Below the pieces are notes generated by a model. It worked only from the letters and a program-made list of their open reading frames with translations, did not search any database and was not told the DNA's origin. A stretch of DNA of 62,906 nt from an uncultured Pseudomonadota bacterium (GTDB lineage Bacteria > Pseudomonadota > Alphaproteobacteria > RF32 > CAG-239). This document shows, in pieces, positions 42,103 through 60,975 of this stretch (position 1 is the stretch's first letter; each line of letters opens with the position of its first letter). Both the position numbers and the translations under genes were made by a program. The stretch lies in the NCBI GenBank assembly GCA_949290295.1, contig CASERH010000009.1, positions 1 through 62,906 on the forward strand, given 5' to 3'.

Positions 42103-42296
42103 TTTTTCAAGCGCCCTTTTTTAGAGGGCGTTTTTTTATTTTGAGAGGCGAAGATATTATCAAAGCAAAATTGATAGTATTCCCAAGAGATTTTGTTTTG
42201 CGTCTGAGGAGGAGAGGGCATTTTGAAGGTATCAAAAAGCTTGATTTCGTCTTCTTCAACATCTTGGTAAGTGTAAGAATTTTTTGCCTTGTCCAT
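42090..42296 (-). CDS. hypothetical small protein (68 aa) at the tRNA-proximal end of the element
   Basis: A strong SD (AGGAGG) lies 8 nt upstream of the ATG at 42296. The reading frame runs through the tRNA-Thr terminator and the last 13 nt of the tRNA, so the C-terminus is uncertain. Confidence 0.4.
42112..42137 (+). terminator. rho-independent terminator after tRNA-Thr
   Basis: CGCCCT-N7-AGGGCG followed by T7. Confidence 0.75.
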
Positions 42297-42324
42297 AAGA
42301 AATCCTCCTAAAAAGAAAATAATT

Positions 42325-42591
42325 TTAATAGCATATGGTTTTGATTTGGTCGCCAAGCCACGCATCTGCGCCCTGATTAATAAAATTGCGAAAAGCTTTT
42401 ATTTCAGGGATGTCTTGAGTGTTGAGCCAGTCACAAAGTTGCCAATCGGGCATATCGTTGATGTAGTCGCAAAAAGCCAAAACCAGATTAATTCTGCGGG
42501 CATAAGGGAGAGCATCGTCCGTAAAGTTCACCTCAAAATAGGTAAACATATCGGCGGCAATATTTTTGAACTTTTGATTTTTAATAAACAT
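42325..42591 (-). CDS. hypothetical protein (88 aa), downstream of the repressor
   Basis: Intact ORF on the repressor strand, preceded by a 14-bp perfect palindrome. No recognisable motif. Confidence 0.5.
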   Translation of the reverse strand: MFIKNQKFKNIAADMFTYFEVNFTDDALPYARRINLVLAFCDYINDMPDWQLCDWLNTQDIPEIKAFRNFINQGADAWLGDQIKTICY

Positions 42592-42594
42592 AAC

Positions 42595-42627
42595 GATTCA
42601 TCCGTATAACAACTATACGGATGAATC
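42595..42627. promoter_or_regulatory. perfect 14-bp inverted repeat (GATTCATCCGTATA-acaac-TATACGGATGAATC)
   Basis: Seen directly. It sits 3 nt upstream of the 88-aa gene start. It overlaps the -10/+1 of a minus-strand TTGACC-18-TAGATT promoter-like site (-35 at 42648-42653). Confidence 0.55.
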
Positions 42628-42662
42628 TACGATAAAAGTATTTGAGGGGTCAAGATAAAAAT

Positions 42663-42677
42663 ATACGCTGTGCGTAT
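42663..42677. promoter_or_regulatory. operator-like palindrome ATACG-N5-CGTAT
   Basis: ATACGCTGTGCGTAT, 5 nt downstream of the repressor stop. It has the same half-sites as the sites in the divergent control region. Confidence 0.45.
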
Positions 42678-42681
42678 CTTT

Positions 42682-43488
42682 TTAAATACGCTTAATCAAA
42701 CCGACAACACGTCCTATGATACGACATTCGTCTATTGAGCGCTCATAGGTGCTGTGCTTTGGGTTGTCGGAAATAATTTTCAGAGTCTGCGGGTCGCTGT
42801 TGGGAATAAGCTCGATTCGCTTAATCGCTACACCCAGTCCGTCCCAAAGGGCAAAGACACCGGCCGGAGAGGGGATTCGCCCCTTGGCAGAGGTATCAAC
42901 AATAACCTTGTCGCCGGTGGCAATAGTTGGGTACATGCTATCGCCCAAGGCCTCAATGATGTAGACATTTTTGGTCTGCACGTTCATCTCACTCAAGTAT
43001 TCGGAAGGAATCCTCCAATTATCTTTAATACGGCGAGTAGAAAGGTTGTCCGCATTATAGTTATAAGAAATGTCGTTTAAGAATCCGGTGGAGATATCCC
43101 AAGTATCTTTAATGTTGTCTTGAGAGATTGTGTTACCAAACTCATCGGTTGTGTTAATGAGGTTTGCGCCCGAGGCGTTGCCGCAACCACCGTAGACGTC
43201 AATTTCAGGAATAGAGTTTTCCGGCTCGCGGTAAGCATAGTCGGATTCGTTTTTACTCAAGAACTGAACATCATCAGACAAGCCGGAGTTAAAATCGAGC
43301 ATACTGTCGAGTCTCACCCTGAGAATCGCAGCAGCTTTAGCGACTCTGTCTAAGGGGATGGCTTTTGTTTTTCCTGAAAAAAGTTCATATATGCGGCTTG
43401 GCGGCCAGCTCAAATCTTTTGCGAATCGGGAGGGATTGCTTCCGAGTTCTGTTAGTCTTTCTCTTAGCCAATTCCATCGTTGTTGCAT
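42682..43488 (-). CDS. phage repressor, XRE-type HTH fused to an S24 (LexA-like) autopeptidase domain
   Basis: N-terminal HTH (SRFAKDLSWPPSRIYELFSG). C-terminal ALGDSMYPTI (Ser nucleophile) and VAIKRI (Lys). 268 aa with an SD (AAGGAG). Confidence 0.85.
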   Translation of the reverse strand: MQQRWNWLRERLTELGSNPSRFAKDLSWPPSRIYELFSGKTKAIPLDRVAKAAAILRVRLDSMLDFNSGLSDDVQFLSKNESDYAYREPENSIPEIDVYGGCGNASGANLINTTDEFGNTISQDNIKDTWDISTGFLNDISYNYNADNLSTRRIKDNWRIPSEYLSEMNVQTKNVYIIEALGDSMYPTIATGDKVIVDTSAKGRIPSPAGVFALWDGLGVAIKRIELIPNSDPQTLKIISDNPKHSTYERSIDECRIIGRVVGLIKRI

Positions 43489-43519
43489 AACTATGGCTCC
43501 TTATAAGTTTTTGTTTTTA

Positions 43520-43608
43520 ATACGAAAAGAGTATCTTTTAAAATGCATTTTGTAAATATACGAACAGTGTAGAAAAAAGCACTTGACTTGCCGATACGCA
43601 AATCGTAT
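43520..43608. promoter_or_regulatory. three tandem operator-like sites (ATAC-N7-GTAT family) in the divergent control region, overlapping a rightward promoter
   Basis: 43594-43608 ATACGCAAATCGTAT is perfect. 43558-43572 ATACGAACAGTGTAG is imperfect. 43520-43534 ATACGAAAAGAGTAT is near-perfect. Centres are 36-38 nt apart. TTGACT at 43583-43588 places the first site in the promoter spacer. Confidence 0.5.
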
Positions 43609-43661
43609 TTAATATATACTATAATAGTTATTAATATTTTATTTACAAGAGGAAAAATGCC

Positions 43662-44111
43662 ATGAATACCGCAAAAACGCATTCAAATTGCCTGAAAAAG
43701 AAAGAAATTTCAGAGCCGTTGTTGTATCGGCGTCGCCTGCAAGATATCAGAATTTGGCGTCATATCAGCGAAAAAGGGTTTGAAAGAGTAGCGGTAAGGC
43801 TATGCCAGGGATATAAATTTATCTGCTGGGGAGGCAGAATGAGAACATCATCTTGGTCAGAGAAAATATCTCGCAGTTACCATCAAGACGTAGACAGTTT
43901 CAATAACGATTCGCTGGATTATCTTATGCACTGCAAGAAAGATTATTTGCATTGGGCAGAGGCTTGCGAGCAAGAAGGGGTTAATCACAGAGCGGTGATG
44001 GAGATAATTTTTTTTGGTCGCAATACGGCAGAAGTAGAGAAGATGTTTCGGCATCGTCATGGCTGGGCATTAAAGAATATGATGCAAGCCTTTGAATTAT
44101 ATAGGAAATAG
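43662..44111 (+). CDS. putative late-gene regulator (Q-like antiterminator or sigma-region-4-like activator)
   Basis: 149 aa, divergent from the repressor and immediately upstream of a promoter-terminator leader. The C-terminal R.V.EIIFFG....EVE......GWA.K....A segment resembles a sigma70 region-4 HTH. Several Cys/His are present. Confidence 0.45.
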   Translation: MNTAKTHSNCLKKKEISEPLLYRRRLQDIRIWRHISEKGFERVAVRLCQGYKFICWGGRMRTSSWSEKISRSYHQDVDSFNNDSLDYLMHCKKDYLHWAEACEQEGVNHRAVMEIIFFGRNTAEVEKMFRHRHGWALKNMMQAFELYRK

Positions 44112-44130
44112 CAAAAGTTATCCACAGGGC

Positions 44131-44157
44131 TTGACAAACGGGGAGAAAAGTTATACA
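44131..44157 (+). promoter_or_regulatory. candidate late promoter (TTGACA ... TATACA, short 15-nt spacer)
   Basis: Consensus -35 at 44131-44136 with the best -10 hexamer at 44152-44157. CGTATAC-tagaatt-CGTATAT repeats follow at 44163-44183. Confidence 0.35.
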
Positions 44158-44207
44158 AAAAACGTATACTAGAATTCGTATATCCTTTTGGGGAAAAGTT
44201 TTAATTT

Positions 44208-44240
44208 ACCGGTGCCGGTGTTGAAGGCGCCGGTTTTTTT
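44208..44240 (+). terminator. strong intrinsic terminator in the leader upstream of the terminase gene
   Basis: ACCGGTGCC-N9-GGCGCCGGT (9-bp GC-rich stem) followed by T7, 48 nt before the TerL ATG. Confidence 0.8.
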
Positions 44241-44287
44241 ATGCCGAATTTATCGGTAGGGGAGATTAAGAAAGAAGGGGAAGAATA

Positions 44288-45796
44288 ATGACAACAAAAG
44301 CCGGAAGAAATAAGGTAATGGGAGGGAGCGTCGAAAAGTCTGACGCGATGATGGTCAACAAGAGAGAAAAAGGCAGCCCAAGGAAAATAAAAAAATCTGC
44401 CTCCAGGGAAGCAAAGACCATCATTGGGGAAGTCATTTCTTCCGGCCGCAAAGCACCAAAAAAGCGAGTTCAAAAATCAGAAGAGTTAAAGATAGAAATA
44501 GCCGAGGTTTTCAAACCTCTGTTGAGTGAGGCCTGGCGCGTAAAGTTTTATTATGGCGGCAGAGGCGGCGGTAAATCTTATGCCTTTGCTGACAGCTTGC
44601 TTCTTTTAGGGCGGCAAAAAAAATTGTTTATAGCCTGCCTGCGGGAGATCCAAGACAGCATCAAAGATTCGGTCTACAAATTGCTGTGTGATAGAATTTC
44701 TGCTTGGGGGTTAACCGATTATAAGATTTATGAAAACAGAATAGAAAACAAAGTAACCGGCACGCGCTTTATCTTCAGAGGCCTAAGAGATCAAGATATA
44801 AACAATATTAAATCTTTGGAAGGTGTGGATATTGCTTGGATAGAAGAAGCGCACACCATCACCAAAAAATCTTGGAATATTCTAAGCCCGACCATTCGCA
44901 AAAACGGCTCAGAGATTTGGATATCCATGAACCGAGAAGAAGAGAATGATCCTTTGTGGGTGTTGGTGGGCAGCAAACCAGATGAGCGAACTTTGGTACG
45001 CAAAGTGAATTATTATGATAACCCGTTTTGTCCGGAGGAGCTTAAACTTCAGGCTGAAAAATGCAAGCGTGAAAGTCCCGAGGACTATGAGCACATCTGG
45101 CTTGGCGAGCCGATAAGGCAAGGAAATTATAAGCTGATATCCTCTCAAAGGGTTAAGGATGCTTTTGTAAAAAAGATGGATTCTTCAACTTCCCCCTTGG
45201 TCATTGGGTTGGATATTGCCCGCTTTGGCGATGACAAGACCTCATTTTGTTTCAGACGCGGGCGTTGGTGTATGAAATTTGAGACTTATAAGAAATTGGA
45301 TAATGTGGAGGTTGCCAATGTCACCACCAATTTCATCCGCCAATATCAGCCCTATCGAATATTTATGGATGTCGGCGGGCAGGGAGCCGGTGTGTATGAT
45401 ATCTTAAAAGACCGAGGTTATGGTGAGATTATCCGCGGTGTCTATTTTGGGGAGAAAGCCCTAAACGACGAGCGTTATTATAACCGCCGTGCCGAGATGT
45501 GGGATGAGATAAGACACTGGCTGGACCAAAAGCCACCGGTGGAGCTGCCGCAAGATGAAGAACTTTTGGATGATTTGACTTCCATCAATAAAAAATATGA
45601 CCAAAGAGGCCGCCTGCGCCTAGAGGAAAAAGATGAGTTGAAAAAACGCTTGGGCCGCTCTCCCGACAAGGGCGATGCCTTGGCTCTGACCTTTGCTGAG
45701 CCGGTATATGACACCGGCCAACCGAGATTATACGGCAATGGGCAGGTGACATTTGAAGATTTATTTAAAGCACAATCAAGGAGTGTTGAATGGTAA
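44288..45796 (+). CDS. terminase large subunit (PBSX/Terminase_3-like) with a basic N-terminal extension
   Basis: Walker A YYGGRGGGKSYAF sits at residues ~88-100 and Walker B-like DIAWIEEA follows. The C-terminal nuclease region has GLDIARFGDD. The first ~65 aa are Lys/Arg-rich. Confidence 0.85.
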   Translation: MTTKAGRNKVMGGSVEKSDAMMVNKREKGSPRKIKKSASREAKTIIGEVISSGRKAPKKRVQKSEELKIEIAEVFKPLLSEAWRVKFYYGGRGGGKSYAFADSLLLLGRQKKLFIACLREIQDSIKDSVYKLLCDRISAWGLTDYKIYENRIENKVTGTRFIFRGLRDQDINNIKSLEGVDIAWIEEAHTITKKSWNILSPTIRKNGSEIWISMNREEENDPLWVLVGSKPDERTLVRKVNYYDNPFCPEELKLQAEKCKRESPEDYEHIWLGEPIRQGNYKLISSQRVKDAFVKKMDSSTSPLVIGLDIARFGDDKTSFCFRRGRWCMKFETYKKLDNVEVANVTTNFIRQYQPYRIFMDVGGQGAGVYDILKDRGYGEIIRGVYFGEKALNDERYYNRRAEMWDEIRHWLDQKPPVELPQDEELLDDLTSINKKYDQRGRLRLEEKDELKKRLGRSPDKGDALALTFAEPVYDTGQPRLYGNGQVTFEDLFKAQSRSVEW

Positions 45797-46047
45797 AAGC
45801 AGTAATGGACCGAGTTTTTATTCGGCTTGATGCAAAAGAAACCGCCACCAGGGGCGGTATTATTTTAACCGATGACCATGATTATGAGCGCACCATCGGC
45901 GTGGTCGAGAGTGTGGGCCCAAGCGTCAAAAGCGTCAAGGTTGGGGACAGAGTTTTGTTTCACGTTTTTGATGAGCTTCCCTCTTATGATCCTGATGTTG
46001 TTGTCGTGCGTGAGAATTCTTTACTAGGAGTATTTGAAAATGACTAA
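45790..46047 (+). CDS. GroES/Cpn10-like co-chaperonin
   Basis: 85 aa. The pattern DRVFIRL...TRGGIIL......IGVVESVGP......VKVGDRVLF matches the GroES fold. Its start overlaps the TerL stop (ATGGTAA). Confidence 0.65.
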   Translation: MVKAVMDRVFIRLDAKETATRGGIILTDDHDYERTIGVVESVGPSVKSVKVGDRVLFHVFDELPSYDPDVVVVRENSLLGVFEND

Positions 46048-47959
46048 ACAGCAAGAAGTTGAGAAATGGCTGAAAAAAATTTCCGTCGCGGAAAAAAAGT
46101 ATAATGATTATTACGAGCTGATAAAAGAGACCAGAGAGTTTTATAAAGACAACAGAGGCATGAGCCGCAGAGACGGACACTATAACATTTTTTGGTCAAC
46201 GGTTGAAACACTCAAGCCCTTTCTCTATTTCAAACAACCAAAACCATATATTGAGCGAGGCAACAAATCTGCCAACAAGGCGGAGAAACTTGCCTGCGAT
46301 ATTTTGACCAAAGCGCTTGAGTGGGATTTGCAGCAATTTGATTTTGACAGCATCATAAAATATGCGCGCAATGACTTTTTAATCAGCGGTTGCGGCATTA
46401 TCTGGGAGAGATATCAGCCGGAGTTCAAACAAATTCCGGCCGCCTTTGTGCCGGATAAAACCATCGAGGTAAAAAGCTCTGAAAAAGTCATTTCCGAATA
46501 TGTTAACCCGGAGCATTTTTTGGCAGATTGTGACCAAGTCGGCATTTGGGAAGATGTGAGTTGGATTGCCCGCAAGATTTTCATGACCAAACAAGAGGCC
46601 GTAGATATTTTCGGAGAGGCCGCTTGTATTAATCTGGTGGAGGCAAATGAGAAAGACTATGAGAACAAAGAAGTTTGCATCTACGAGGTCTGGGACAAAC
46701 CAAGCCGCAAGGTTTATTGGTTGGCCAAAGAAAAAACGGATGACTTTTTGAAAGTCGCAGAAAATCCCTTGCACGTGAGCGGATTCTTTCCATGCCCAAA
46801 ACCGATTTTTGCCACCCTAACCAACGACAGCATCATCCCGGTTCCGGATTATTGCCTGATAAAAGAATTGCTAAGTGAGCTCAACGGGATAAATACCAGA
46901 ATGCGCCTGACCATGCAGGCCTTAAAAGTGAGCGGTGCTTATGATAATTCTTTTCCGGAATTGGCTAGTATTTTGAACAAGGATGTCACTTTGGTTGCCG
47001 CCAAAGATTTCCAAAGATTGAAAGATGCCGGCGGCTTGAAGGGAATTTTGGATTTTGTTCCCATTGAGCAATATATCACGGCCCTAGAGCAGTTATCCGC
47101 TCGCCGCCAAGATGTCATTACTCAGATTTATGAAGTCACCGGAGTTTCAGACATCATGCGCGGCAGTGCCAACAGCAGTGAGACAGCAACCGCCGTCACC
47201 AAAAAGACCAACTTCGGCACCTTGCGCAATCAAGACCGCCAAAATGATATGCAACGCTTTATCAAAGATTTGTTTGCCATCAAGGCAGAAATTATTTGTG
47301 AGCAGTTTTCAGCCCAGACATTGCTTGCCTTTCTTCCGGCAGAAAACCGTGGAACACCGGAGGCTTTGGCCGCGGTTGCTTTGCTCAAAGATGAGAAAAT
47401 GCGAGGCATGTGCCTGGATATTGAAAACGACAATGTTTTCAATGCCGATGAAGAGGCTCAAAAGATTTTAGAAGGCATCAAATCCATCAACGAGTTGGTC
47501 GGAGCGGCGTTGCCAAACGTGAGCCAACAGCCGTTGTTGCTGCCGCTATACAAGAGCATGATAGAAGCTGTTTGTGCGGCTCTGCCGAAAGCACGTCCGT
47601 TTGAGGCAGTGATAGAGAAAGTGTTTAACGATGTTGCCGCCGAGCTCTCCAAGCCAGAACAGCCGCAGCCGAATCAGCAGTTGCAAATAGAGCAAGATAA
47701 ATTGGCCATAGAAAGAGAGAAGAATCAGCTAAAATCGAGAGAGCTTGATATCAAGGCCAAGAGCGAGGAAGCCAAGTTGCGGCTGACCGAGCAAGAGATG
47801 AGATTGCAAAGCGGTCTAAAAGTTCAGCAGCTCTCAGATGAAAGGAAAAAACAGGCAGACAAAAGCGATCCGGTTGTGATTCATGAGAAAGAGCCGTTGC
47901 CGGTACCGTCCAAGAAAGTAGATACCAACATCAGCACCGGCCTTGTCAAAGGATTTTAG
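46040..47959 (+). CDS. portal protein (putative) with a C-terminal coiled-coil/basic tail
   Basis: ~640 aa, directly after TerL, with an SD (AGGAG) 9 nt upstream of the ATG at 46040. Called from size and position. Confidence 0.6.
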   Translation: MTKQQEVEKWLKKISVAEKKYNDYYELIKETREFYKDNRGMSRRDGHYNIFWSTVETLKPFLYFKQPKPYIERGNKSANKAEKLACDILTKALEWDLQQFDFDSIIKYARNDFLISGCGIIWERYQPEFKQIPAAFVPDKTIEVKSSEKVISEYVNPEHFLADCDQVGIWEDVSWIARKIFMTKQEAVDIFGEAACINLVEANEKDYENKEVCIYEVWDKPSRKVYWLAKEKTDDFLKVAENPLHVSGFFPCPKPIFATLTNDSIIPVPDYCLIKELLSELNGINTRMRLTMQALKVSGAYDNSFPELASILNKDVTLVAAKDFQRLKDAGGLKGILDFVPIEQYITALEQLSARRQDVITQIYEVTGVSDIMRGSANSSETATAVTKKTNFGTLRNQDRQNDMQRFIKDLFAIKAEIICEQFSAQTLLAFLPAENRGTPEALAAVALLKDEKMRGMCLDIENDNVFNADEEAQKILEGIKSINELVGAALPNVSQQPLLLPLYKSMIEAVCAALPKARPFEAVIEKVFNDVAAELSKPEQPQPNQQLQIEQDKLAIEREKNQLKSRELDIKAKSEEAKLRLTEQEMRLQSGLKVQQLSDERKKQADKSDPVVIHEKEPLPVPSKKVDTNISTGLVKGF

Positions 47960-47970
47960 GAGCAAAGCCA

Positions 47971-48180
47971 ATGACCATCAAAAAGAGCAAATTAACTTTT
48001 GAGGATATATTAGAAGAGTTGGAAGAGGCCAGAAAGTTGGCGGTTCAGAATGAATCGCCGACAGCGGCCATTTCAGCCTCATTGGGCAAGGCAAAGGTTT
48101 TGGCGCTGATAAATGATAAAATTGCGGCAAAACCGAGCACAGAAGACGCCTACAAACAAATTTTGGTTGAATTTATTTAG
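47971..48180 (+). CDS. hypothetical phage protein (69 aa)
   Basis: SD plus ATG; acidic helical protein with no motif. Confidence 0.5.
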   Translation: MTIKKSKLTFEDILEELEEARKLAVQNESPTAAISASLGKAKVLALINDKIAAKPSTEDAYKQILVEFI

Positions 48181-48233: not shown

Positions 48234-48836
48234 ATGGGAATATATACTAATTCATTCGGAGAGACACCCGAAGAACAAGAAAAACGTCGCCAGCATTTAT
48301 ATCAAGTATACGATGCATCAGTTAAGAAAAACGAGCAACAGACAGCTTATAAAGATACCCCTCAAGATCAAATGACACGGGAAACAAATAATAATGAAAT
48401 AGGGAGTAAAAGTATACAACATAACAATAACTCAGCATTAAAAGAAAACACTACAAACAACATCCATAATTTTGCCTCTCAAATAAAAAACGCAGCAGAG
48501 GCTATGAGTAATGAATATTTTTTGATGCATAAGCATAATTATAAAAACTTAGATGATTATTATCATTGTAAGGCTAATTATAATGCGACGAAACAAGGAG
48601 TTTTTGGAAAAGCAACTTCTCATATTTTAGGCACGGGAAAGGAAGTTGTTGACTTAGTACGAAATACAACATATAAAAGAATGCCAATACAAAATGCCAT
48701 TAAAGACATGAACCATGATTTAAATATTAATCAAATAGGTAGAAATAGAGCTGATAAAAATATTGGTATTTCTGCCCAAGATGCGTGTGCGGATTTTAGA
48801 TGGAAAAATCCTAAATTACCAGAGGAATATTGGTGA
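48234..48836 (+). CDS. serum amyloid A (SAA)-like domain protein with an Asn/Gln-rich N-terminal region
   Basis: The C-terminal ~105 aa align without large gaps to vertebrate SAA from memory. MSNEYFLMHKHNYKNLDDYYHCKANYNATKQGVFG aligns with [42 protein letters not shown]...DFRWKNPKLPEEYW aligns with [23 protein letters not shown]. Confidence 0.7.
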   Translation: MGIYTNSFGETPEEQEKRRQHLYQVYDASVKKNEQQTAYKDTPQDQMTRETNNNEIGSKSIQHNNNSALKENTTNNIHNFASQIKNAAEAMSNEYFLMHKHNYKNLDDYYHCKANYNATKQGVFGKATSHILGTGKEVVDLVRNTTYKRMPIQNAIKDMNHDLNINQIGRNRADKNIGISAQDACADFRWKNPKLPEEYW

Positions 48837-48838
48837 AT

Positions 48839-49243
48839 ATGATATCAATAAGAAAAATTCTGAACATCATAGTTGTTATATTTCTGATAACTATCATGGT
48901 AACTCCGTTGTTGGGAGTTCTGTATATCTTTTTTAATGATAAAGGAGCCTGTTTGGAAACAGGAGGTGTTTGGGATGAAGAAGAAGGCCGTTGCCGACAA
49001 GATTGTTTGGTTTGGAACAAAAAATTCGGATGCATTGAATTAACAGCAGAACAAGTCAAAAAAATGGAAAGTTGTCGTTCAATAAATAAACATTGCCTTT
49101 CAATTGATGACTTTTTTGTTATTTGTCAAAACAACAACAAAGCTTGGAATTTAGATAACAAAAGTTGTCGTTTTGAGTTTAAAATATCTGAGTGTGGAAA
49201 GCTTTCAGGACATTGGCAATACCCTTCTTTATGTAAAGAGTAA
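48839..49243 (+). CDS. membrane-anchored Cys-rich protein
   Basis: An N-terminal TM helix (ILNIIVVIFLITIMVTPLLGVLYIFF) is followed by a ~100-aa domain with 10 Cys. Possible starts are ATG 48839, GTG 48833 or TTG 48830. It overlaps or abuts the SAA-like gene stop. Confidence 0.6.
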   Translation: MISIRKILNIIVVIFLITIMVTPLLGVLYIFFNDKGACLETGGVWDEEEGRCRQDCLVWNKKFGCIELTAEQVKKMESCRSINKHCLSIDDFFVICQNNNKAWNLDNKSCRFEFKISECGKLSGHWQYPSLCKE

Positions 49244-49307: not shown

Positions 49308-49321
49308 ATGCGGAGAATCAG

Positions 49322-51226: not shown

Positions 51227-51240
51227 GACTCATAAAAATT

Positions 51241-51276
51241 CGTGCCGTTGAGGAAACTTAGCGGCACGAGCTTTTT
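51241..51276 (+). terminator. rho-independent terminator after the capsid gene
   Basis: CGTGCCG-N14-CGGCACG then AGCTTTTT. Confidence 0.7.
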
Positions 51277-54218: not shown

Positions 54219-54624
54219 TGTTATTTTTGATAAGAATGACGTCATCACCAACTGGGTGTGTGATAATTTAAAAAGTGGCAATAAATGGTTAGGAGAGCAC
54301 TTAACCATAGGCTTTACACTGGGAGATAGATTAATCGGCGGGCTGATTTATCATGATTGCCGTATGGGACACGATGTCTGGTGGACGATTTATACGAATG
54401 ATAAACATTGGTGCACCAGAAAGATACTTCGTTTTATTTTTTCGGTAGCCTTTGATTATTTAGGCTGTCGGCGTATAAGCATTTTAACCAACGTAAATAA
54501 CAAGGAGTGCTTAAAATTGGTTTCAAAACTAGGTTTTAGGCAAGAAGGTCTGCTCAAAGAATATGATGATGATGGCAGCGATGTTGCCGTCATGGCTTTA
54601 CATAAACAATTTTCAAAATTTTAA
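54193..54624 (+). CDS. GNAT-family N-acetyltransferase-like protein
   Basis: 143 aa. The central segment ...ILRFIFSVAFDYLGCRRISILTNVNNKECLKLVSKLGFRQEG resembles the GNAT acetyl-CoA-binding core. Confidence 0.55.
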   Translation: MNKEAASCNVIFDKNDVITNWVCDNLKSGNKWLGEHLTIGFTLGDRLIGGLIYHDCRMGHDVWWTIYTNDKHWCTRKILRFIFSVAFDYLGCRRISILTNVNNKECLKLVSKLGFRQEGLLKEYDDDGSDVAVMALHKQFSKF

Positions 54625-54634
54625 GGAGAAAAGA

Positions 54635-55507
54635 ATGTCAAAAAGTGTGGGAAAATTACTCGGTGTTGGTAATGCCAAAACCGGTTATTACGGATCAGAA
54701 CAAGATGTACTTAATTATTTGGATAATTACGATACATCGCAAACAGACAGTGCCTATAACAACATGGCAACGCTTGGCAATCAGATGACAACCGAGTTGT
54801 CTAATCGCCCTGGCTATGTCTATTCGGTGAATGGTTCAGATGATGCGGCCAGAAGAGCAGAAACCGCAACCTACCAAAGTGCAGTGAGCCAAATTACACC
54901 TCAGTTTGACAGCCGCCGCCGACAGCTGGAAACTCAGTTGCAAAATCAGGGCTTGTCCGTTGGCAGTGAGGCCTACCAAAGCGCCATGAATAATCTGGAG
55001 CAACAGCAAAATGACGCTTATACGCAGGCAGCTTATCAGGCTATTCAGCAGGGACAAAATGCTTATACCAATAGCCTGAATAATCAGATTGCGGCCGGAA
55101 ATTTCCAGAATTCGGCACAGATTTTGCCTGTTAATGAGATATTGAGTTTGCTTTCAAACAGCAAGAGCGGCTACGATGTTGCAATGGATAAATATAACGT
55201 TGCCAACAAGGCAGATTTAAGAAGCTCTGCCGCCAGTGAGGCCAATGCCGATGCCAGAAACTCGGCTGGTTGGAATATTATCAATACCGGACTAGGGGCT
55301 CTGTTTTCAGATGAGGACTTGAAAGAAAATATCATAGAAGTCGGACGTTTGTATAACGGCTTGAAAGTATATTTATTCACTTATCGCGGAGATACGGTAC
55401 CACATATCGGCCTGCTGGCTCAGGAGGTTGTGCAAGTGCGTCCCGAGGCAGTAAGTGTTGAGAAAAACGGCTATATGAAAGTAAATTATGCTCTTGCTTG
55501 CCGTTAA
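54635..55507 (+). CDS. tail/fiber-associated protein with a C-terminal S74 intramolecular-chaperone autoprocessing domain
   Basis: C-terminal SDEDLKENI...VYLFTYRGDTVPHIGLLAQEVVQVRPEAV...GYMKVNY matches the Peptidase_S74 pattern. The middle is Gln/Asn-rich and helical. SD (AAGGAG) upstream of the ATG at 54635. Confidence 0.65.
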   Translation: MSKSVGKLLGVGNAKTGYYGSEQDVLNYLDNYDTSQTDSAYNNMATLGNQMTTELSNRPGYVYSVNGSDDAARRAETATYQSAVSQITPQFDSRRRQLETQLQNQGLSVGSEAYQSAMNNLEQQQNDAYTQAAYQAIQQGQNAYTNSLNNQIAAGNFQNSAQILPVNEILSLLSNSKSGYDVAMDKYNVANKADLRSSAASEANADARNSAGWNIINTGLGALFSDEDLKENIIEVGRLYNGLKVYLFTYRGDTVPHIGLLAQEVVQVRPEAVSVEKNGYMKVNYALACR

Positions 55508-55582: not shown

Positions 55583-55963
55583 ATGACATATATCTTTGCA
55601 GAGCTATTGGGCAGCTTGGCCTTAAGTGGTATTATCCGTGCGTTGATATTGTATTTATATAAAAAATATGATGGAAAATCACATTGGGTAATAGCTAACC
55701 TAAGTACGGCAATTTTGCGTACTTTGTTTGTGGTGCCGAGATTGCTGAGCAGCCCATATGTTGTGCTGGATATATCAGTTATGCTTGTAATTTATTTTTT
55801 GGAACAGCTGGTATGGTTTTTATATGACTATATCCAACAGCGCCGAGGCAATAAAGCAGCCGGCTGGGGCCTGATATTTGGCATTATCATCGGCGGTGTC
55901 TTGTGGTTGTTTGTTTTAAGACTGCTTACTTTTTATATAAGCAGCCTGTTCATGTCTATCTAG
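55583..55963 (+). CDS. small multi-pass membrane protein (holin-like or immunity)
   Basis: 126 aa with 3-4 predicted TM helices, upstream of the spanin pair. Confidence 0.5.
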   Translation: MTYIFAELLGSLALSGIIRALILYLYKKYDGKSHWVIANLSTAILRTLFVVPRLLSSPYVVLDISVMLVIYFLEQLVWFLYDYIQQRRGNKAAGWGLIFGIIIGGVLWLFVLRLLTFYISSLFMSI

Positions 55964-56153
55964 ATTGTACATAAGCTAAATAATAGCTGTCGAGCTGAGG
56001 TTCGGCGGCTTTTTTATAAGAGGAAAAAATGCTCAAAAAGTATAGATTAGCTATATTTTCCGTAGGGCTGATAATATTATCCATAGTTTCTCTCCTAAAG
56101 CCCGAGGCGGCAGAAAATGTCGCCCGGGCATTTTTATTATTATGGGGGATGGG

Positions 56154-56351
56154 ATGATAAAAAAAATATTATTGGTCACGATGCTATGCGTAGTCAGTTA
56201 TGCTTTGGGACGCTCACAGGCCAAAGAGGAAATCATTACCAAGCAGGTGGAGGTAATCAAATATGTTGAGAAAGAAAAAGCCAAGATACATTCTCGTCCT
56301 AACGCTGACAGGTCTGCTTTGCTTGCTCTCATGTACTCCGACAAAATGTAA
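56154..56351 (+). CDS. i-spanin (Rz-like)
   Basis: An N-terminal TM (ILLVTMLCVVSYAL) is followed by a charged helical domain. It overlaps the lipoprotein gene in another frame. ATG at 56154 (alternative at 56142). Confidence 0.6.
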   Translation: MIKKILLVTMLCVVSYALGRSQAKEEIITKQVEVIKYVEKEKAKIHSRPNADRSALLALMYSDKM

Positions 56352-56493
56352 TCATATTTGTCCGGCGTATCCGATAGCCGGCAGCAAAGTGGCAAGAGAG
56401 CTGGAACGAGCAAGCGGAGAAGAATACCCCAACACCTGGGAGTGGTTGGGAAGAATAGATAAACTGCGACAAGAGCTGGAGCTTTGTCGCTAA
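56263..56493 (+). CDS. o-spanin (Rz1-like lipoprotein)
   Basis: Lipobox LTGLLCLLS-C after a basic N-terminus. It starts inside the i-spanin gene, giving an overlapped spanin architecture. Confidence 0.65.
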   Translation: MLRKKKPRYILVLTLTGLLCLLSCTPTKCNHICPAYPIAGSKVARELERASGEEYPNTWEWLGRIDKLRQELELCR

Positions 56494-56516
56494 TTTTTTA
56501 ATATAAGGAGAAAAAA

Positions 56517-57299
56517 ATGCCATATGATAGTGAAGGAAATTTCACCCGAGTTCACAATTGGGAAGATGACAGGATAAATGACATAGACATTGTAACTGAT
56601 CATCATGATGAAGAAGACGACAACTTTGCCGATGGGCTCAGCAGTTGTTTCTTGCGAGATGGTCGTAGCGCCATGAAAGGCGATATAAATTGCGCCGGTT
56701 TCAAAATTAAGAATGTCGGCAACGGAACCTTGAGTGGAGACGGAGTAAATCGCGGACAATTAGATGAAACGATAGATCATTTAGAGGCAGCAATTTTATC
56801 GGCTGCCAACAAACTATTTAAGCTTGGAGATATCAAAGCCTCACTGCAAACCGCTAACCATGACAATTGGTTTTTGTGCAATGGGCAGGCTATATCAAGA
56901 ACGGATTATGCAGATTTATTTGAGATGATAGGCACCAATTTTGGAGCCGGAGACGGTGTAAATACATTTAATCTGCCAGATTATCAAGGAAAGTTTTTGC
57001 GAGGCTTGGGAGGAGATTCTGAAAGTGATTTTTATACTACGCAAGAAGAAAGTTTGCCCGATATAACCGGTACGGCAGGAAAAATTTTCAATGGTGTCAA
57101 TATTAACAAATTAACGGCGACAGGAGCATTTAAGTCATCAACAACTTCAACGGGAACCGGAGCAGATGCAAATTTCACGGATACAATTATTGATTTGGAT
57201 TTTAAGGCATCAAATTCCAATGAAATTTACGCGGGTACCCACGTAACGCCGATTAACCAAGCTGTAAACTATTTTATAAAAGTAAAAGAGGAGGCTTAA
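56517..57299 (+). CDS. tail fiber protein with a phage tail-collar domain
   Basis: WFLCNGQAISRTDYADLFEMIGTNFGAGDGVNTFNLPDYQGKFLRG matches the tail-collar (Collar) motif. Confidence 0.75.
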   Translation: MPYDSEGNFTRVHNWEDDRINDIDIVTDHHDEEDDNFADGLSSCFLRDGRSAMKGDINCAGFKIKNVGNGTLSGDGVNRGQLDETIDHLEAAILSAANKLFKLGDIKASLQTANHDNWFLCNGQAISRTDYADLFEMIGTNFGAGDGVNTFNLPDYQGKFLRGLGGDSESDFYTTQEESLPDITGTAGKIFNGVNINKLTATGAFKSSTTSTGTGADANFTDTIIDLDFKASNSNEIYAGTHVTPINQAVNYFIKVKEEA

Positions 57300-57302
57300 A
57301 AC

Positions 57303-57653
57303 ATGGCAGGTATATTAAACAGTAGAGGAATAACCGTTCGCAAAGGAGACAGTTTCGCAATTGCGATTCGTTTTAAAACAGAAGACGGAGCTTTAGACAT
57401 CAGCGGAGCAACGATAAAGATGGATGTCAAAGACATGGACAACAAACTCCTTTTTAGCAAGGCCGGACAAATCACCGATGCCATCAATGGATTGGCAGGT
57501 ATAGAGTTAACGCCGCAAGATACCAAATTAGACGAGGGAGATTATAAGACAGATATCCAGATTACATATGCAAATGGACAAGTGCATACCATTTTCCCGC
57601 AGGATATTAATAAGGTTGCCTATTTTAGAGTGACCAGCCAGGTAACGGAGTAG
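57303..57653 (+). CDS. hypothetical tail-associated protein (116 aa, Ig-like/BppU-N-like suspected)
   Basis: Lies between two fiber genes, with a beta-rich sequence. Weak from-memory similarity only. Confidence 0.45.
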   Translation: MAGILNSRGITVRKGDSFAIAIRFKTEDGALDISGATIKMDVKDMDNKLLFSKAGQITDAINGLAGIELTPQDTKLDEGDYKTDIQITYANGQVHTIFPQDINKVAYFRVTSQVTE

Positions 57654-57658
57654 ATAAC

Positions 57659-59269
57659 ATGAATGAGAAATCAGAATTAGCCGTTTTTGACGGATATGAT
57701 AAACAAAAGATAGAAGTAATGTTTCAAGAAGAGGCGAATTTAGAAGTAAAGATGCCTCTTTTTTATGTTAATTCCGGAAAGAAGGAAATAGAAAATTATG
57801 TTGAAAACAATTGTAAACCAGAGTTGGCAAGATACACGTTTTCTAAACAAGAAGAGCTAAATGCGTCAGTAGACGGAGTCTATAAGCCGGAATTGAAATC
57901 ATATACAGAATCACGCAAAGAAGATATTTTGTATTATGTTGAAAATACCAGCAAGCCTAAAATTGATGATTATATTGATGCAGAAGTAGCCCCATATAGC
58001 ACATCGGCACAAAGTGCGGCTGCAGTAGCTTTAGCAAGCGAGCAAGCTACAAAAATCTCAGAAGACAAAGCCAAAGAATCAGAACTTTCGGCAGCAGCAA
58101 GTGCGGCAGAAGCCAAGCAATATCGAGATGAGGCAGAAGAAATAATCCATCCTACCCAAGCAACGGAAGATGATTTGGGGCTTGCGGCAATAGCTACGGA
58201 AGAAGATGTTGCAGCGGGGGTTAATGATAGTAAATTTATCACTCCTCTAAAGGCAGCTGGATATTATCAGAGCAAAACGGAAGCTAATTCCAAGTACGAA
58301 AATATTCAAGAAGTATTGGCGCAAAAAGCTAACAAGACTGAGATATTTTCAGCCGGAAATATTGGAGACATAAAATACACCTCACGAGTTGATGTGCCGG
58401 CTGGGGGAGTTTGGTGCGATGGGGCAGAATACACAAAAGCAACTTTTCCTGATGTTTATCAGATGCTGTTAGATGGTAACTTACAAAATACCGACTATGC
58501 AACCTATAATAACTCAGTATCAACAAACGGTTCTTGCGGATTTTTTGCACTTGATGCAAGCAACGAAAAATTTAAAGTTCCAACTTTGAGCAATGTATAC
58601 ATAAAAGCAGGACAAACACCATTAATGTTCGGTGTTGAAAGTTTACCGAATATTACGGGAAGTTTTACACTTCAAAACGATATGTTCTTCACAGGAACAG
58701 GAGTTTTTTCCACCTCTGGAAACCTCACAAGATATGTAGCTGGTATAAATGCAGGAAATAGCGGCGCAAATGGAGAAAGTTTTGATGCCTCTCGCAGTTC
58801 TCCCATCTATCAAAACGGAGCAAAAGTAAACCCCGACCACGTTGTTTATAGAGCCTATGTTGTATTATATGCAAGCGCGGCAGAGGCAAGCGAGGCACAG
58901 ATTGCTGAGTTTTTAACCACTATGGATAGTAAAGCTAATGCCGATATGAGTAATGTCAATGTTTCGGGAAAAGAGTTTATATCAATACAGGGAAAACCAA
59001 GTAATCGGTATACTAACGTAGCGTTGCAAGCAAGTGGAACAACTTATACAGCTCCTGCGAGTGGCTACATTGTGATAAGTGGAACTAACGATTGGTTAGA
59101 TATTTCTGTTCCACCTATTAATTTGGGATTTTGTGCTGGAGGAAGGACTTCAGACGGATTTTCTCGTGGTTATATCCCAATTAGAAAAGGAGAAGCTTTT
59201 GTCGTTTATTATGGCCCTTCTTTCGTAAAAACAGATTTCAGATTCACTTATGATGAGGGAGCAAAATAA
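57659..59269 (+). CDS. long tail fiber protein
   Basis: 536 aa with N-terminal short repeats (YVEN..KPE / YKPELKSYT / YVENTSKPK), an Ala-rich coiled segment and a Gly/Asn-rich distal domain. Confidence 0.65.
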   Translation: MNEKSELAVFDGYDKQKIEVMFQEEANLEVKMPLFYVNSGKKEIENYVENNCKPELARYTFSKQEELNASVDGVYKPELKSYTESRKEDILYYVENTSKPKIDDYIDAEVAPYSTSAQSAAAVALASEQATKISEDKAKESELSAAASAAEAKQYRDEAEEIIHPTQATEDDLGLAAIATEEDVAAGVNDSKFITPLKAAGYYQSKTEANSKYENIQEVLAQKANKTEIFSAGNIGDIKYTSRVDVPAGGVWCDGAEYTKATFPDVYQMLLDGNLQNTDYATYNNSVSTNGSCGFFALDASNEKFKVPTLSNVYIKAGQTPLMFGVESLPNITGSFTLQNDMFFTGTGVFSTSGNLTRYVAGINAGNSGANGESFDASRSSPIYQNGAKVNPDHVVYRAYVVLYASAAEASEAQIAEFLTTMDSKANADMSNVNVSGKEFISIQGKPSNRYTNVALQASGTTYTAPASGYIVISGTNDWLDISVPPINLGFCAGGRTSDGFSRGYIPIRKGEAFVVYYGPSFVKTDFRFTYDEGAK

Positions 59270-59649
59270 TGTTTATAGGTTACCAAATTAATGAACAAGG
59301 CCAAGAGTTTATTGCAAGTATTGCCGACACTCGCGATGAGCTTGAGAACAATCTTTTTGTAAAATATACAAGGATTGAGGAAAGCAATGAGGATTGGCAA
59401 TTAATCAATGGACAGTACCGTATAGGAGGATTGACAAGTGAGGAACTATCAGCACAAAAGCGCTCAGAGCGCGATACTATGCTTAAGGCAACAGATGTTT
59501 ATATGCTGATTGATTTTCCCATCAGCGATGAGCAAAGGGAGCATTATAAGCAATATCGGCAGTATTTGAGAGATTTGCCAACAATAGAGAACTTTCCGGA
59601 AGTTGAGATCATGAGTTTTAAGGAGTGGCAACAATGGATTGGGGATTGA
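59269..59649 (+). CDS. tail fiber assembly chaperone
   Basis: 126 aa. The pattern R.ERD..L.ATD......D.P.....R..Y..YRQ.LRDLP is typical of Tfa proteins. TAATG overlap with the fiber gene. Confidence 0.6.
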   Translation: MFIGYQINEQGQEFIASIADTRDELENNLFVKYTRIEESNEDWQLINGQYRIGGLTSEELSAQKRSERDTMLKATDVYMLIDFPISDEQREHYKQYRQYLRDLPTIENFPEVEIMSFKEWQQWIGD

Positions 59650-59879
59650 TAGCAGGTTTGGCAGCCTTGGCCGGAGTTTTTATGAACTTTGTCCGCCTTG
59701 GCCACTGGCAAGGCAGTATTGAAAGCCGGGTTAAATCTCTGGAGCAGGCCTCATCCAATGCTCTGACCAAGTTTGATGCCATTTCACAAGTTTTGGACAA
59801 GAACACGGTTATCTTAACCGAGCTAAAAACAAGGCTTGACTTGATTTTTGACGAGAAAAGGGGGAGGCGCCTGCAATGA
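59634..59879 (+). CDS. single-TM holin-like protein
   Basis: 81 aa from the ATG at 59634 (SD AAGGAG) with an N-terminal TM (WGLIAGLAALAGVFMNFV) and a coiled coil. ATGA overlap with the lysozyme gene. Confidence 0.5.
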   Translation: MDWGLIAGLAALAGVFMNFVRLGHWQGSIESRVKSLEQASSNALTKFDAISQVLDKNTVILTELKTRLDLIFDEKRGRRLQ

Positions 59880-60346
59880 TAGAAATAAGAAAAGCCTCCG
59901 AGCGTTTGGCGATGCACGAGGGGGTGAGGTTGCAGCCTTATTTTTGTACCAAAGGCAAACAGACCATAGGGGTGGGGAGAAATTTAGATGACAATCCCAT
60001 TACCCCGGAAGAGGAAAAAGTCATCGGCGATTGGCGGCACGGTATCACAAAAGAGGCCGCCTTTTTTTTGCTTCGTCACGACATCAATCGGGTTGTGGCC
60101 GAGTGCGAGAAACATATTCCGTTTTGGAAAAAATTAGATGATGAGCGGCAATATGCGCTGATGGATATGGCCTTTAATATGGGAATAAAAAGACTGCTTG
60201 GTTTTAAGAAAATGATGGCATTTTTAGGCGTCGGCAATTATCGTCAGGCGGCGGTGGAGTGTTTGGCCTCACAATACGCCAAAGAGGTAGGCCGCCGTGC
60301 CCAACGAATTGCCAAAACAATAGAAACAGGGAGGTTTGAAGTATGA
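59876..60346 (+). CDS. GH24 (T4-type) lysozyme/endolysin
   Basis: HEGVRLQPYFCTKGKQTIGVGRNL aligns gaplessly to T4 lysozyme residues 10-32 (E11 and T26 conserved; the D20 position is Cys). Confidence 0.85.
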   Translation: MIEIRKASERLAMHEGVRLQPYFCTKGKQTIGVGRNLDDNPITPEEEKVIGDWRHGITKEAAFFLLRHDINRVVAECEKHIPFWKKLDDERQYALMDMAFNMGIKRLLGFKKMMAFLGVGNYRQAAVECLASQYAKEVGRRAQRIAKTIETGRFEV

Positions 60347-60942
60347 CGAATGTGTTATTTGCCGTTTTTTACGGTGTGGTAATGGGCTTCTGGCGGCGCT
60401 GGTTTGGCGGTGGTTTTGCCAATAAATATAAATGGCTGGAAAACAGAGGCCTGCAAGCAACAGTCGGTATCTTTTTAATGATGCCGATTTTTTTATATCG
60501 ATTGGATAGCTGGTTGAATTGGTTACTGGCAATGGTTTTTGCCGTGTACTTATATGCGCAGTTTTGGAGCCGCGGTCATGGTGCCTGCTTTGATATCGGT
60601 CGCGATACAAATCCTTCTGCATCAGCGATTGAGAGATATAACGAAAGGTGGTACCACTTGGTATGCGATTGGCTTTTGCCAGAGAAAAAATATGGCTTTG
60701 CCTATGATTTTGTATATATGGCCTTGCGCTATACGTGTCCTCTGGTTCCAATGGCTTTACTGGATTGGCGGATTTTACTCATCGGTTTGAGTGTCAGCCC
60801 GATTTATGCCTTTTGCCACAGCCTTGGCGAAAGAGAAAGCTGGTTGTTGGATAATGCTCCGGAATGGCTCAATAAACCGGTCAAATGGGCGGAACTGGCA
60901 ACAGGTTTTGTCTTTGGTTTTGGAATGTGGATGATAAGATAA
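60343..60942 (+). CDS. multi-pass membrane protein of unknown function, translationally coupled to the lysozyme
   Basis: 199 aa with ~5 TM segments and an ATGA overlap. It is the last gene before the terminator. Confidence 0.55.
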   Translation: MTNVLFAVFYGVVMGFWRRWFGGGFANKYKWLENRGLQATVGIFLMMPIFLYRLDSWLNWLLAMVFAVYLYAQFWSRGHGACFDIGRDTNPSASAIERYNERWYHLVCDWLLPEKKYGFAYDFVYMALRYTCPLVPMALLDWRILLIGLSVSPIYAFCHSLGERESWLLDNAPEWLNKPVKWAELATGFVFGFGMWMIR

Positions 60943-60943
60943 T

Positions 60944-60975
60944 AAAAAAAGCCCTCACAAAAGTGGGGGCTTTTC
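60944..60975. terminator. bidirectional terminator at the right border of the element
   Basis: AAAAAAAGCCCTCAC-aaaa-GTGGGGGCTTTT. Confidence 0.8.

Follow-up and report, generated by a model that had tools for sequence, protein, structure and literature searches.

Particle genes and the missing early region

The window analysed here is the whole of a 62,906-bp contig (CASERH010000009.1) from an uncultured alphaproteobacterium of the lineage RF32 (CAG-239), and its subject is a compact cluster of ~27 phage-type genes, an 18.6-kb locus that spans 42.3-60.95 kb. Its predicted products cover all the modules that can be recognised as required for assembling a short-tailed particle, filling it and setting it free. 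The left border is a host gene, tRNA-Thr(CGT) (42027-42102, + strand; ARAGORN), the 3' end of which is directed toward the element, and the right border is an intrinsic terminator with a 12-bp stem (60947-60974, + strand). The original prediction for this DNA had drawn the same borders around a somewhat larger set of ~30 genes. Open reading frames (ORFs) in the cluster were assigned by profile searches against PHROGs and Pfam, and these agreed with the identities proposed earlier for the large terminase subunit (TerL), the GroES-like protein, the portal, the capsid, the fibres, the fibre chaperone, the lysozyme and the S24 repressor.

The particle genes all lie on the + strand. TerL (44288-45796; Terminase_3, 2e-35; phrog_3717) is followed by a GroES/Cpn10-like co-chaperonin (45790-46047; Cpn10, 2.9e-12), found in 57 of 80 related loci, and by the portal gene (46034-47959; phrog_12082, 6e-115, with a weak match to P22_portal). 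Further along are a 223-aa scaffolding-like protein (49537-50208), which has no family match and was assigned by its position and by a family kept before the capsid gene in nearly all loci, and the major capsid protein (MCP; 50255-51226; phrog_9953, 8e-105, with a weak match to SU10_MCP). Next come a 185-aa head-completion-like protein (p185) and a 239-aa tail adaptor (51414-52687; phrog_20268 and phrog_6013 'tail protein', respectively), the adaptor having an orthologue in the related locus L002 with a weak SU10_adaptor match. The conserved 516-aa tail protein (p516; 52668-54218; phrog_5107, 1.5e-92, labelled 'amidase' in PHROGs) is the counterpart of p52 of phage Mx8, and a GNAT acetyltransferase inside the tail module (54193-54624; phrog_4470, 1.6e-23) is the counterpart of Mx8 p53. 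A fibre or spike protein whose C-terminus is an S74 intramolecular chaperone (54563-55507; Peptidase_S74, 1.6e-8; phrog_6121) probably has its true start near 54635. Beyond it are a 126-aa membrane protein and a 76-aa lipoprotein with the lipobox LLSC (55583-56493), candidates by their sequence for lysis-accessory or spanin-like proteins; the family of the lipoprotein, p76, adjoins lysis genes in other loci. The receptor-binding module (56517-59649) consists of a Collar fibre (Collar, 1.4e-18), a BppU_N protein, a 536-aa fibre and a tail-fibre assembly chaperone (Phage_tail_APC, 1.2e-14), and the lysis cassette (59625-60942) of an 84-aa holin-like protein, a GH24 lysozyme (Phage_lysozyme, 6e-13) and a 199-aa multi-pass membrane protein. 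No interrupted structural gene was found, as had been stated earlier, and the ratios of non-synonymous to synonymous substitution rates (dN/dS) are far below 1.

The MCP is 46% identical to the major head protein of Mx8 over 99% of its length, 44-46% identical to those of Bradyrhizobium ppBjS10J-1 and Stenotrophomonas BUCT555 and 26.5% identical to that of the Brucella Tb group. In gene order the cluster is colinear with p44-p54 of Mx8, down to the acyltransferase within the tail module, and no cluster ORF matches a tape-measure, tail-tube or sheath family, the only tape-measure matches being to the M23 domain of a host flank gene. Because of this colinearity, the weak SU10_MCP, SU10_adaptor and P22_portal matches and the lack of any tape-measure, tube or sheath match, the predicted products indicate a short-tailed particle built from a podovirus module of the Mx8/SU10 type. 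Phages and IMG/VR contigs with related MCPs have genomes of 38-50 kb, and the earlier estimate that ~19 kb is about half a capsid-load is therefore a fair one. Scaffold length varies among the loci L006-L165, from 354-416 aa in the ~40-kb phages through 283-334 aa in fuller rumen relatives to 218-231 aa in the window's clade, and the portals shorten in parallel; the shorter scaffold and portal may reflect a smaller capsid. The GNAT gene has stayed in the virion block throughout, in Mx8 (p53), in the ~40-kb phages and in the compact elements.

No ORF of the cluster matches an integrase, excisionase, replication, helicase/primase or small terminase (TerS) family in Pfam or PHROGs, and the earlier claim that integrase, excisionase and replication genes are lacking thus withstood the profile searches. 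There is no second tRNA-Thr 3' end at the far border with up to 3 mismatches in 32 nt, which also bears out what had been predicted, and no att-like direct repeat brackets the cluster. Among relatives the integrase census is complete for the Pfam-annotated loci, and no integrase was found in the compact ones (L002-L005, L175 and L176); nor is an integrase common in the flanks of relatives, where a rare one is possible (Pfam census of 120 non-core flanking ORFs, with 25 of 88 families among the matches listed).

The earlier statement that there is no classical TerS holds in that no TerS family is matched, but a remnant of such a protein is present. In relatives a recognisable TerS gene lies directly upstream of TerL, with a Terminase_2 match in L031 and L032 (8.5e-11) and GP3_package matches in families f30 and f106; the position before TerL in the window holds only a promoter-like site and a terminator. 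After the portal gene there is a 69-aa TerS-like stub (47971-48180, + strand), which resembles the C-terminal part of a Terminase_2-type TerS without the N-terminal helix-turn-helix (HTH). Its alignment with residues 127-194 of the L031/L032 TerS has an hhalign probability of 99% (E 3e-18), the pairwise BLASTP identity being only 40% over 57 aa. Since the Pfam Terminase_2 match of those proteins, HTH included, covers residues 72-145, the stub retains the part after the DNA-binding domain, including a conserved tail, 'VLVxFV', at the C-terminus. Its sequence does not vary within the species (100% conserved), and across the window's clade identity is 59-72%. In L175 a homologue immediately precedes TerL; in L055 one is found upstream of TerL but separated from it by other ORFs. 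A TerS of this kind has precedents. The gp1 protein of the gene transfer agent (GTA) RcGTA is without a DNA-binding domain at its N-terminus, the loss of which has been proposed as a defining trait of GTA-type TerS (PMC6854486), and the TerS of FpGTA is without an obvious DNA-binding domain (PMC12946183). We infer that the stub would act as TerS, in which case packaging would be non-specific.

The TerL of the window has an N-terminal extension of ~60 aa very rich in Lys and Arg (44288-44480), which is not found in relatives with a TerL of 436-456 aa. It might allow the protein to bind DNA non-specifically, or it might stem from a wrongly assigned start codon.

Distribution, inheritance and selection

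Relatives of the MCP occur in 191 GTDB species-representative genomes, the scan covering one genome per GTDB species. Locus comparisons were made with the best 80 of the 191 (MCP 69-100% identical), and these 80 are all gut or rumen alphaproteobacterial metagenome-assembled genomes (MAGs); all the genomes used are MAGs. The named homologues belong to MAGs from the guts of humans, rabbits, deer, yak and cattle, deposited under the labels Alphaproteobacteria, 'Azospirillum sp.', Azospirillaceae or Rhodospirillales, and these MAGs probably represent the RF32/CAG-239 group. A colinear core is kept in most of the best 80, in the order TerL, GroES, portal, small ORF, scaffold, MCP, p185, adaptor, p516, GNAT, S74 fibre, fibres and lysis genes. 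Compact layouts overall measure ~15-19 kb, and the Pfam-annotated ones (L002-L005, L175 and L176) are 15-17 kb and sit directly between host genes, L176 having no repressor. In a neighbour-joining tree of four core proteins the window's clade, which is defined by the 69-aa stub and by a 149-aa gene described below, is monophyletic and the fuller phage relatives fall outside it.

The same tRNA-Thr adjoins the element in L006, L007, L017 and L021. The cross-genome comparison proposed with the original prediction thus gave conserved synteny at the tRNA-Thr locus and dN/dS below 1, but it also gave other loci in other lineages. A right flank of the M23 peptidase gene and tRNA-Asp is common to the window's clade and several others, a left flank of murD and tRNA-Thr is found in part of the window's clade, and across lineages the element has at least four chromosomal contexts. 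Reordered modules were seen in other lineages. In three rabbit-gut MAGs (L046, L047 and L062) the MCP gene has the host genes yceD and bamE as its immediate upstream neighbours, a GT2 gene lies inside the tail module, and TerL and portal are absent within 10 kb of the MCP gene. Clusters split by host genes and yet intact are hard to reconcile with a mobile prophage and are typical of domesticated elements. A tRNA-Lys(CTT) gene stands at the junction of reordered modules in rabbit and deer MAGs (L046, 19074-19149; L048, 19760-19835; L052, 19891-19966; L062, 16270-16345).

The element co-diverges with neighbouring housekeeping genes, the flanking genes being the basis of the comparison. Over 15 locus pairs the identity of the host M23 protein and that of the element core (TerL, portal, MCP and p516) are correlated with a Pearson r of 0.987 and a mean difference of 1.5 points, with values such as 83/82, 72/73 and 59/60. 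MurD is 71.2-71.5% identical where the element is 72.0-72.5% identical, and in other pairs the element values fall between those of HisRS, RimM and TrmD. A second class of loci, with an ExbD-linked gene set on one side and an ABC transporter on the other, gives the same rank order. Even in L172, where the element is at another locus, its core is ~64-66% identical to that of the window and the host M23 protein 63%.

Purifying selection acts on the element with the same strength as on the genes of the host. When the window is compared with L006 and L007, loci of the same species, nearly all genes have a dN/dS of 0.01-0.1, with 0.02-0.03 for MurD and similar values for M23. No in-frame stops were found in the MCP (80/80 loci), the adaptor tail239 (68/68), p516 (64/64), p185 (74/74), GNAT (62/62) or GroES (57/57); a few were flagged in TerL, portal and the S74 fibre, and in at least one of these cases, the TerL of L025, the alignment extends past the start of the gene. 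The compact layout has been kept across hosts the housekeeping proteins of which are only 58-85% identical. In base composition and tetranucleotide usage the element is indistinguishable from its host, the tetranucleotide correlation between element and host being 0.97-0.98 and that between two host segments 0.976.

Regulation, fibres and flanks

The left end of the cluster carries a gene on the - strand (42682-43488) for a repressor of the CI/LexA type, with an N-terminal HTH and a C-terminal S24 self-cleaving peptidase (phrog_4, 7e-29; Peptidase_S24, 8.5e-14). The serine of a GDSM motif and a downstream lysine, the S24 Ser/Lys dyad, are present, and dN/dS is 0.01. Around it are five operator-like palindromes of the form ATACG-N5-CGTAT (42663, 42719, 43520, 43594 and 44153; span 42663-44167), which mark the two ends of the repressor gene, the divergent promoter and the promoter-like site that precedes TerL. 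The motif occurs 6 times in the window against an expectation of 0.68, a number reached in none of 100 shuffles, and 5 of the 6 copies are within 1.5 kb. Between the 149-aa gene and TerL there is an intrinsic terminator (44214-44234, + strand) with a 9-bp GC-rich stem and T7, 3' of a TTGACA...TATACA promoter-like site. Further terminators follow the MCP gene, where a strong one stands directly 3' of it (51239-51270), and later genes.

The first gene of the rightward operon (43662-44111, + strand) encodes a 149-aa protein, which its position and an all-alpha model suggest to be a putative DNA-binding activator or antiterminator. It has no sequence match in Pfam, PHROGs or the PDB. An AlphaFold2 (AF2) model from 46 sequences is all-alpha with a pLDDT of 82, that from 5 sequences having a pLDDT of 50, and in a fold search the best hits, to extracytoplasmic function (ECF) sigma region 4 and the KorA HTH, were not significant (E>=0.05). 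Two other identities were considered for this protein. That of a TerS was rejected, since it matches no TerS family and is unrelated to the TerS families of relatives; that of a diverged homologue of DUF6456 was not supported by profile-profile comparison with hhalign. In other clades a DUF6456 (GafA-family) gene occupies the position of the 149-aa gene, and GafA, the activator of RcGTA, belongs to the DUF6456 family (PMC9638019). With a repressor, then a putative activator or antiterminator, and then a late promoter and a terminator ahead of the late genes, the region has the layout of a lambdoid late switch. The predicted control resembles the activation plus antitermination reported for CcGTA (PMC11150451).

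The fibre cassette (Collar, BppU, 536-aa fibre and chaperone) differs sharply between strains of the same species, with dS of 1-2 and 64-83% amino acid identity against a dS of ~0.1 in neighbouring genes. This indicates that the receptor-binding cassette has been exchanged by recombination, which argues that the particles really do meet cell surfaces.

Several smaller genes complete the cluster. An 88-aa gene of family f20 (42325-42591, - strand), the outermost on the repressor side, has no Pfam or PHROG match; it is found beside the repressor in 17 loci and has a dN/dS of 0-0.18 within the species. Directly upstream of it is a perfect palindrome with a 15-bp stem (42595-42627) that contains CGTATA, and so a CGTAT half-site as in the operator-like motifs. 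On the + strand between portal and scaffold, beside the TerS-like stub, are genes for a 200-aa protein with a serum-amyloid-A-like domain (48234-48836; Pfam SAA, 48.1 bits against a cut-off of 30.8), a 137-aa membrane-anchored protein with an N-terminal hydrophobic stretch and homologues in several loci (48830-49243) and a 74-aa head-module protein of family f12 (49322-49546; 46% identical to f12 of L085, E 8e-27), a family present in 44 loci. The SAA-related family f17 has several copies between the portal and scaffold genes in L010, L012 and L018. Two ORFs were discarded. The 81-aa ORF at 49308-49553 is not a gene, with a dN/dS of ~1 and stop codons in L009, the real gene being that at 49322-49546 in another frame; the ORF at 43491-43682 (- strand) is probably not one, as it overlaps the divergent promoter and has homologues only within the same species.

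To the right of the cluster the host flank consists of the M23 peptidase gene (60979-62427, - strand; Peptidase_M23, 1.3e-32) and tRNA-Asp (62615-62691, + strand; ARAGORN). Cargo status of the M23 gene was ruled out: it is a host gene, because it occurs without the element in L172, L173 and L179. In the window, L017 and L178 the block of M23 and tRNA-Asp has the opposite orientation to that in L002, L171 and L172. The identified genes of the rest of the contig, to the left of the element, are also those of the host and include chemotaxis and flagellar genes, tRNA synthetases, ffh-rpsP-rimM-trmD-rplS, hisS, asd, mscK and murD. Gene identities for 0-21 kb were taken from a syntenic contig of the same species, those for 20.8-29.5 kb from Pfam searches of the window's own ORFs, three of which gave no match, and those for 33.8-41.3 kb (hisS, a GT2 glycosyltransferase, asd, mscK and murD) from translations read by eye together with Pfam-annotated homologues in L172. 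A 229-aa response regulator of the OmpR/CtrA type (Response_reg and Trans_reg_C; 20844-21533, - strand) lies ~21 kb from the element, and a regulator of the same type directly adjoins the element in L002-L004 and L015 (in L002 at 2625-3314). A 15-nt partial direct copy of the tRNA-Asp T-arm, with 1 mismatch, is found at 62764-62778, 100 nt downstream of tRNA-Asp, and an inverted 12-nt T-arm fragment (6556-6575) in the 180-bp spacer between tRNA-Thr and tRNA-Asp of L172. Both fragments are probably scars of older integrations at this tRNA hot spot.

Origin of the cluster and comparison with known systems

The cluster is best read as a domesticated, chromosomally fixed descendant of a temperate podovirus of the Mx8/SU10 type, that is, as a particle locus inherited with the host, of the GTA or PBSX kind, rather than a self-propagating phage; from the gene content and its conservation we put the probability of this at roughly 60%. 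The original prediction had left the choice between a GTA-like producer and a helper-dependent or defective element. Of the two, the GTA-like alternative is favoured by the compact layout, the co-divergence, the selection, the split clusters and the TerS stub, while decay and a satellite are disfavoured. The simplest history is that a temperate phage of the Mx8 type entered an ancestral genome at the tRNA site, that its integrase and early region were then lost and that the remainder has since been inherited with the chromosome, with occasional relocation or loss.

A domesticated locus with these genes would work as follows. DNA damage would, through RecA, lead the S24 repressor to cleave itself and leave the ATACG-N5-CGTAT operators, and the divergent promoter would then express the 149-aa HTH protein, which would activate transcription or antiterminate it through the terminator before TerL and the later internal ones. 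Procapsids would be formed from portal, short scaffold and MCP with GroES-assisted folding. TerL and a 69-aa TerS without a DNA-recognition domain would start headful packaging on chromosomal DNA that has not been replicated, choosing hardly or not at all by sequence; adaptor, nozzle and fibres would be added, and holin, lysozyme and accessory proteins would lyse the producer cell. The particles would bind neighbouring cells via the fibres that have been swapped between strains, and their payload would be delivered, giving gene transfer, or the particles would mainly kill or signal.

A number of observations weigh against domestication, and some of them concern mobility. In L172, the M23 protein of which is 63% identical, the order is hisS, asd, mscK, murD, tRNA-Thr(+), 180 bp, tRNA-Asp(-) and M23, and the site is empty. 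The comparison was made via protein homologues and contig look-ups, and a metagenome scan with the M23 flank protein gave a single irrelevant locus. Because the empty site has this form, the element in the window's clade can be seen to sit precisely where the 3' ends of two convergent tRNA genes face each other, a classic integrase target. The element of L172 itself is at a tRNA-Met locus, and another related MAG has two unrelated genes at the tRNA-Thr/tRNA-Asp site; some mobility or relocation has therefore occurred. IMG/VR contains fuller phage relatives with MCPs 60-73% identical, as close as those of some compact elements. These are contigs of 30-35 kb which carry, upstream of TerS, N6/N4 and C5 methylases, DUF2303, HNH and DUF6291 genes and a lambdoid-looking early region. 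Relatives with a full early region at variable loci had been named at the outset as one of the findings that would speak against a GTA, and in part this is what was found: relatives with early genes exist, and there are a tRNA hot spot, an empty site and other loci.

Further points on the same side concern packaging and control. Other compact clades keep a recognisable TerS (GP3_package or Terminase_2). Related capsids hold ~40 kb, more than the 18.6-kb locus, and the classical view that a GTA cannot package its own genes may not apply here. The element keeps its own switch of the CI type, and no CtrA box (TTAA-N7-TTAA) is found in the cluster; known alphaproteobacterial GTAs are under host regulators, the networks in question being those of CtrA, GafA and quorum sensing. 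A DNA-level search of 50,697 phage records gave one weak match, the unverified faecal scaffold MT835830, a 17-kb sequence from human faeces deposited as a bacteriophage, which shares 99.5% identity with a MAG locus and spans a related cluster and nothing else. As evidence of self-packaging it was set aside as uninformative, for it has no terminal repeats, one end is in an AT-rich intergenic region and the ends look like assembly breaks.

Much of this would be expected of a minimal temperate phage that is still mobile, relying on the host or a helper for replication and integration, packaging itself with flanking DNA in the style of lateral transduction and re-entering chromosomes by homologous or tRNA-site recombination. 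The tRNA-Thr/tRNA-Asp site with its empty counterpart in L172 and the tRNA-Met locus there, the at least four contexts, the intact repressor, operators and late-gene terminator, the DNA-binding TerS of other clades, the fuller relatives and the extent of MT835830 all agree with it, and a ~40-kb capsid could take the 18.6-kb element with flanks. Such a phage is nevertheless unlikely. Neither the window nor the Pfam-annotated relatives contain an integrase, excisionase, replication gene or att repeat, the identity of the element equals that of host genes pair by pair even at a different locus, host-split clusters cannot move as a unit, the TerS of the window's clade is without the DNA-binding domain, and the ends of MT835830 look like breaks in an assembly.

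All of the evidence for domestication applies equally to a particle producer selected as a weapon or for altruistic lysis, whether as a PBSX-like killer particle or through SOS-triggered release of DNA or public goods. Control by a repressor of the SOS type is in keeping with this, rapid exchange of fibres between strains is what is expected of a strain-discriminating weapon, and the window's clade is without the 650-850-aa proteins, candidate ejection proteins, that lie 3' of the fibre genes in the 40-kb phages; the authors of the FpGTA study also allow a PBSX-like, non-injecting role for their particle (PMC12946183). We consider this a slightly poorer prospect again than the mobile phage, given that packaging motor, portal and TerS stub are under strong purifying selection, being needless in a pure tail-type bacteriocin, and that no toxin domain was found among the structural proteins with PHROGs and Pfam. 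An ordinary defective prophage, recently derived by deletion, decaying and functionless, would account for the lack of integrase and replication genes, the tRNA hot spot and the partial T-arm copy that points to past integrations at the site, but is very improbable with core genes intact in nearly all of the best 80 loci, dN/dS of 0.01-0.1, a compact layout held across hosts 58-85% identical in housekeeping proteins and a fully ameliorated composition.

If the domesticated-locus reading is taken further, the cluster might represent a third independent phage-to-GTA domestication in Alphaproteobacteria, one derived from a podovirus, controlled by an SOS-cleavable CI repressor and widespread in an uncultured gut and rumen lineage, in which the DNA-recognition domain of TerS was lost as in RcGTA and FpGTA and the sister clades with a full TerS or a fuller early region are successive stages of the transition. 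This larger claim is tentative. A graded series does exist within one phage lineage, from ~40-kb phages and the fuller relatives on 30-35-kb contigs through compact elements of 15-19 kb with a normal TerS and compact elements with an HTH-less TerS to host-split clusters, and it opens the path from phage to GTA to direct test. A TerS that has lost its DNA-binding domain is seen, or inferred from sequence, in three unrelated lineages, and this would make such a loss a stronger candidate for a general bioinformatic marker. If the particles carry host DNA, a common group of uncultured gut and rumen bacteria would have a built-in, stress-triggered means of gene exchange, and current GTA detectors, trained on RcGTA homologues, would probably miss it. 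In full-text literature searches no paper was found that connects GTAs with RF32 or with Mx8-type modules, or prophages with CAG-239.

Among known systems a complete temperate podovirus of the Mx8 type is matched in its colinear module. Mx8 and the element have in common TerL, portal, a small ORF, scaffold, MCP, two small ORFs, a tail protein, the 'amidase', the acyltransferase and virion proteins. Only Mx8 has an integrase, Uoi, a replication initiator, a DnaC-like protein, a methylase, an antirepressor and ~35 kb of non-structural genes, so that att, the replication initiator or helicase loader and the early region of such a phage are missing from the element, whereas the element adds a GroES-like gene and the S24 repressor and has a shorter portal and a scaffold of 223 rather than 373 aa. 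Phage satellites, that is phage-inducible chromosomal islands (PICI), capsid-forming PICI and P4-like elements, have an integrase and a primase-replicase of their own and depend on a helper phage for the virion parts that they lack, typically tails. The element has no match to either enzyme and carries its own tail adaptor, nozzle-like protein, fibres and lysis genes.

RcGTA and CcGTA (Rhodogtaviriformidae) resemble the element as chromosomal structural clusters without replication or integration genes that are inherited vertically under purifying selection in an alphaproteobacterial host. The TerS of RcGTA likewise has no DNA-binding domain at the N-terminus (PMC6854486), relatives of the element carry a DUF6456 (GafA-family) gene in the position of the activator, and the late genes of the element stand behind a terminator, which suggests antitermination of the kind reported for CcGTA (PMC11150451). 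The family matches set the two kinds apart, RcGTA-like clusters having siphovirus tail and tape-measure genes and the element a short-tailed set with Terminase_3, a P22-like portal and an SU10-like MCP and adaptor. It differs also in having lysis and fibre genes inside the cluster, its own CI/LexA-type repressor and no CtrA box, and its ancestral class of capsid holds ~40 kb as against ~4 kb in RcGTA and CcGTA.

PBSX of Bacillus subtilis is a chromosomally fixed defective prophage and a repressor-controlled, DNA-damage-inducible producer of particles. It is thus an existing example of SOS-inducible particle production under a repressor, which weakens the earlier claim of novelty on that point. 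In architecture the element is a candidate for the same type, with the intact Ser/Lys dyad of its S24 repressor, its lack of replication genes and its fixed locus. PBSX packages ~13 kb of random host DNA and is released by lysis, and its particles may not inject. It has a long contractile tail and a Gram-positive host, and as far as family matches go it is unrelated to the element in sequence.

[quoted passage not shown] Both come from gut commensals, FpGTA from a human one; FpGTA is podovirus-like, has a TerS without an obvious DNA-binding domain and no replication genes, and is near-ubiquitous in its genus. The differences, compared by description, are that FpGTA belongs to a Gram-positive Firmicute and is divided into two operons of 10.5 and 5.5 kb, whereas the genes described here form one cluster of 18.6 kb that includes a repressor. 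For FpGTA both the particles and the random packaging of 8.4-8.9 kb of DNA have been demonstrated experimentally, whereas the element described here is known from its genes.

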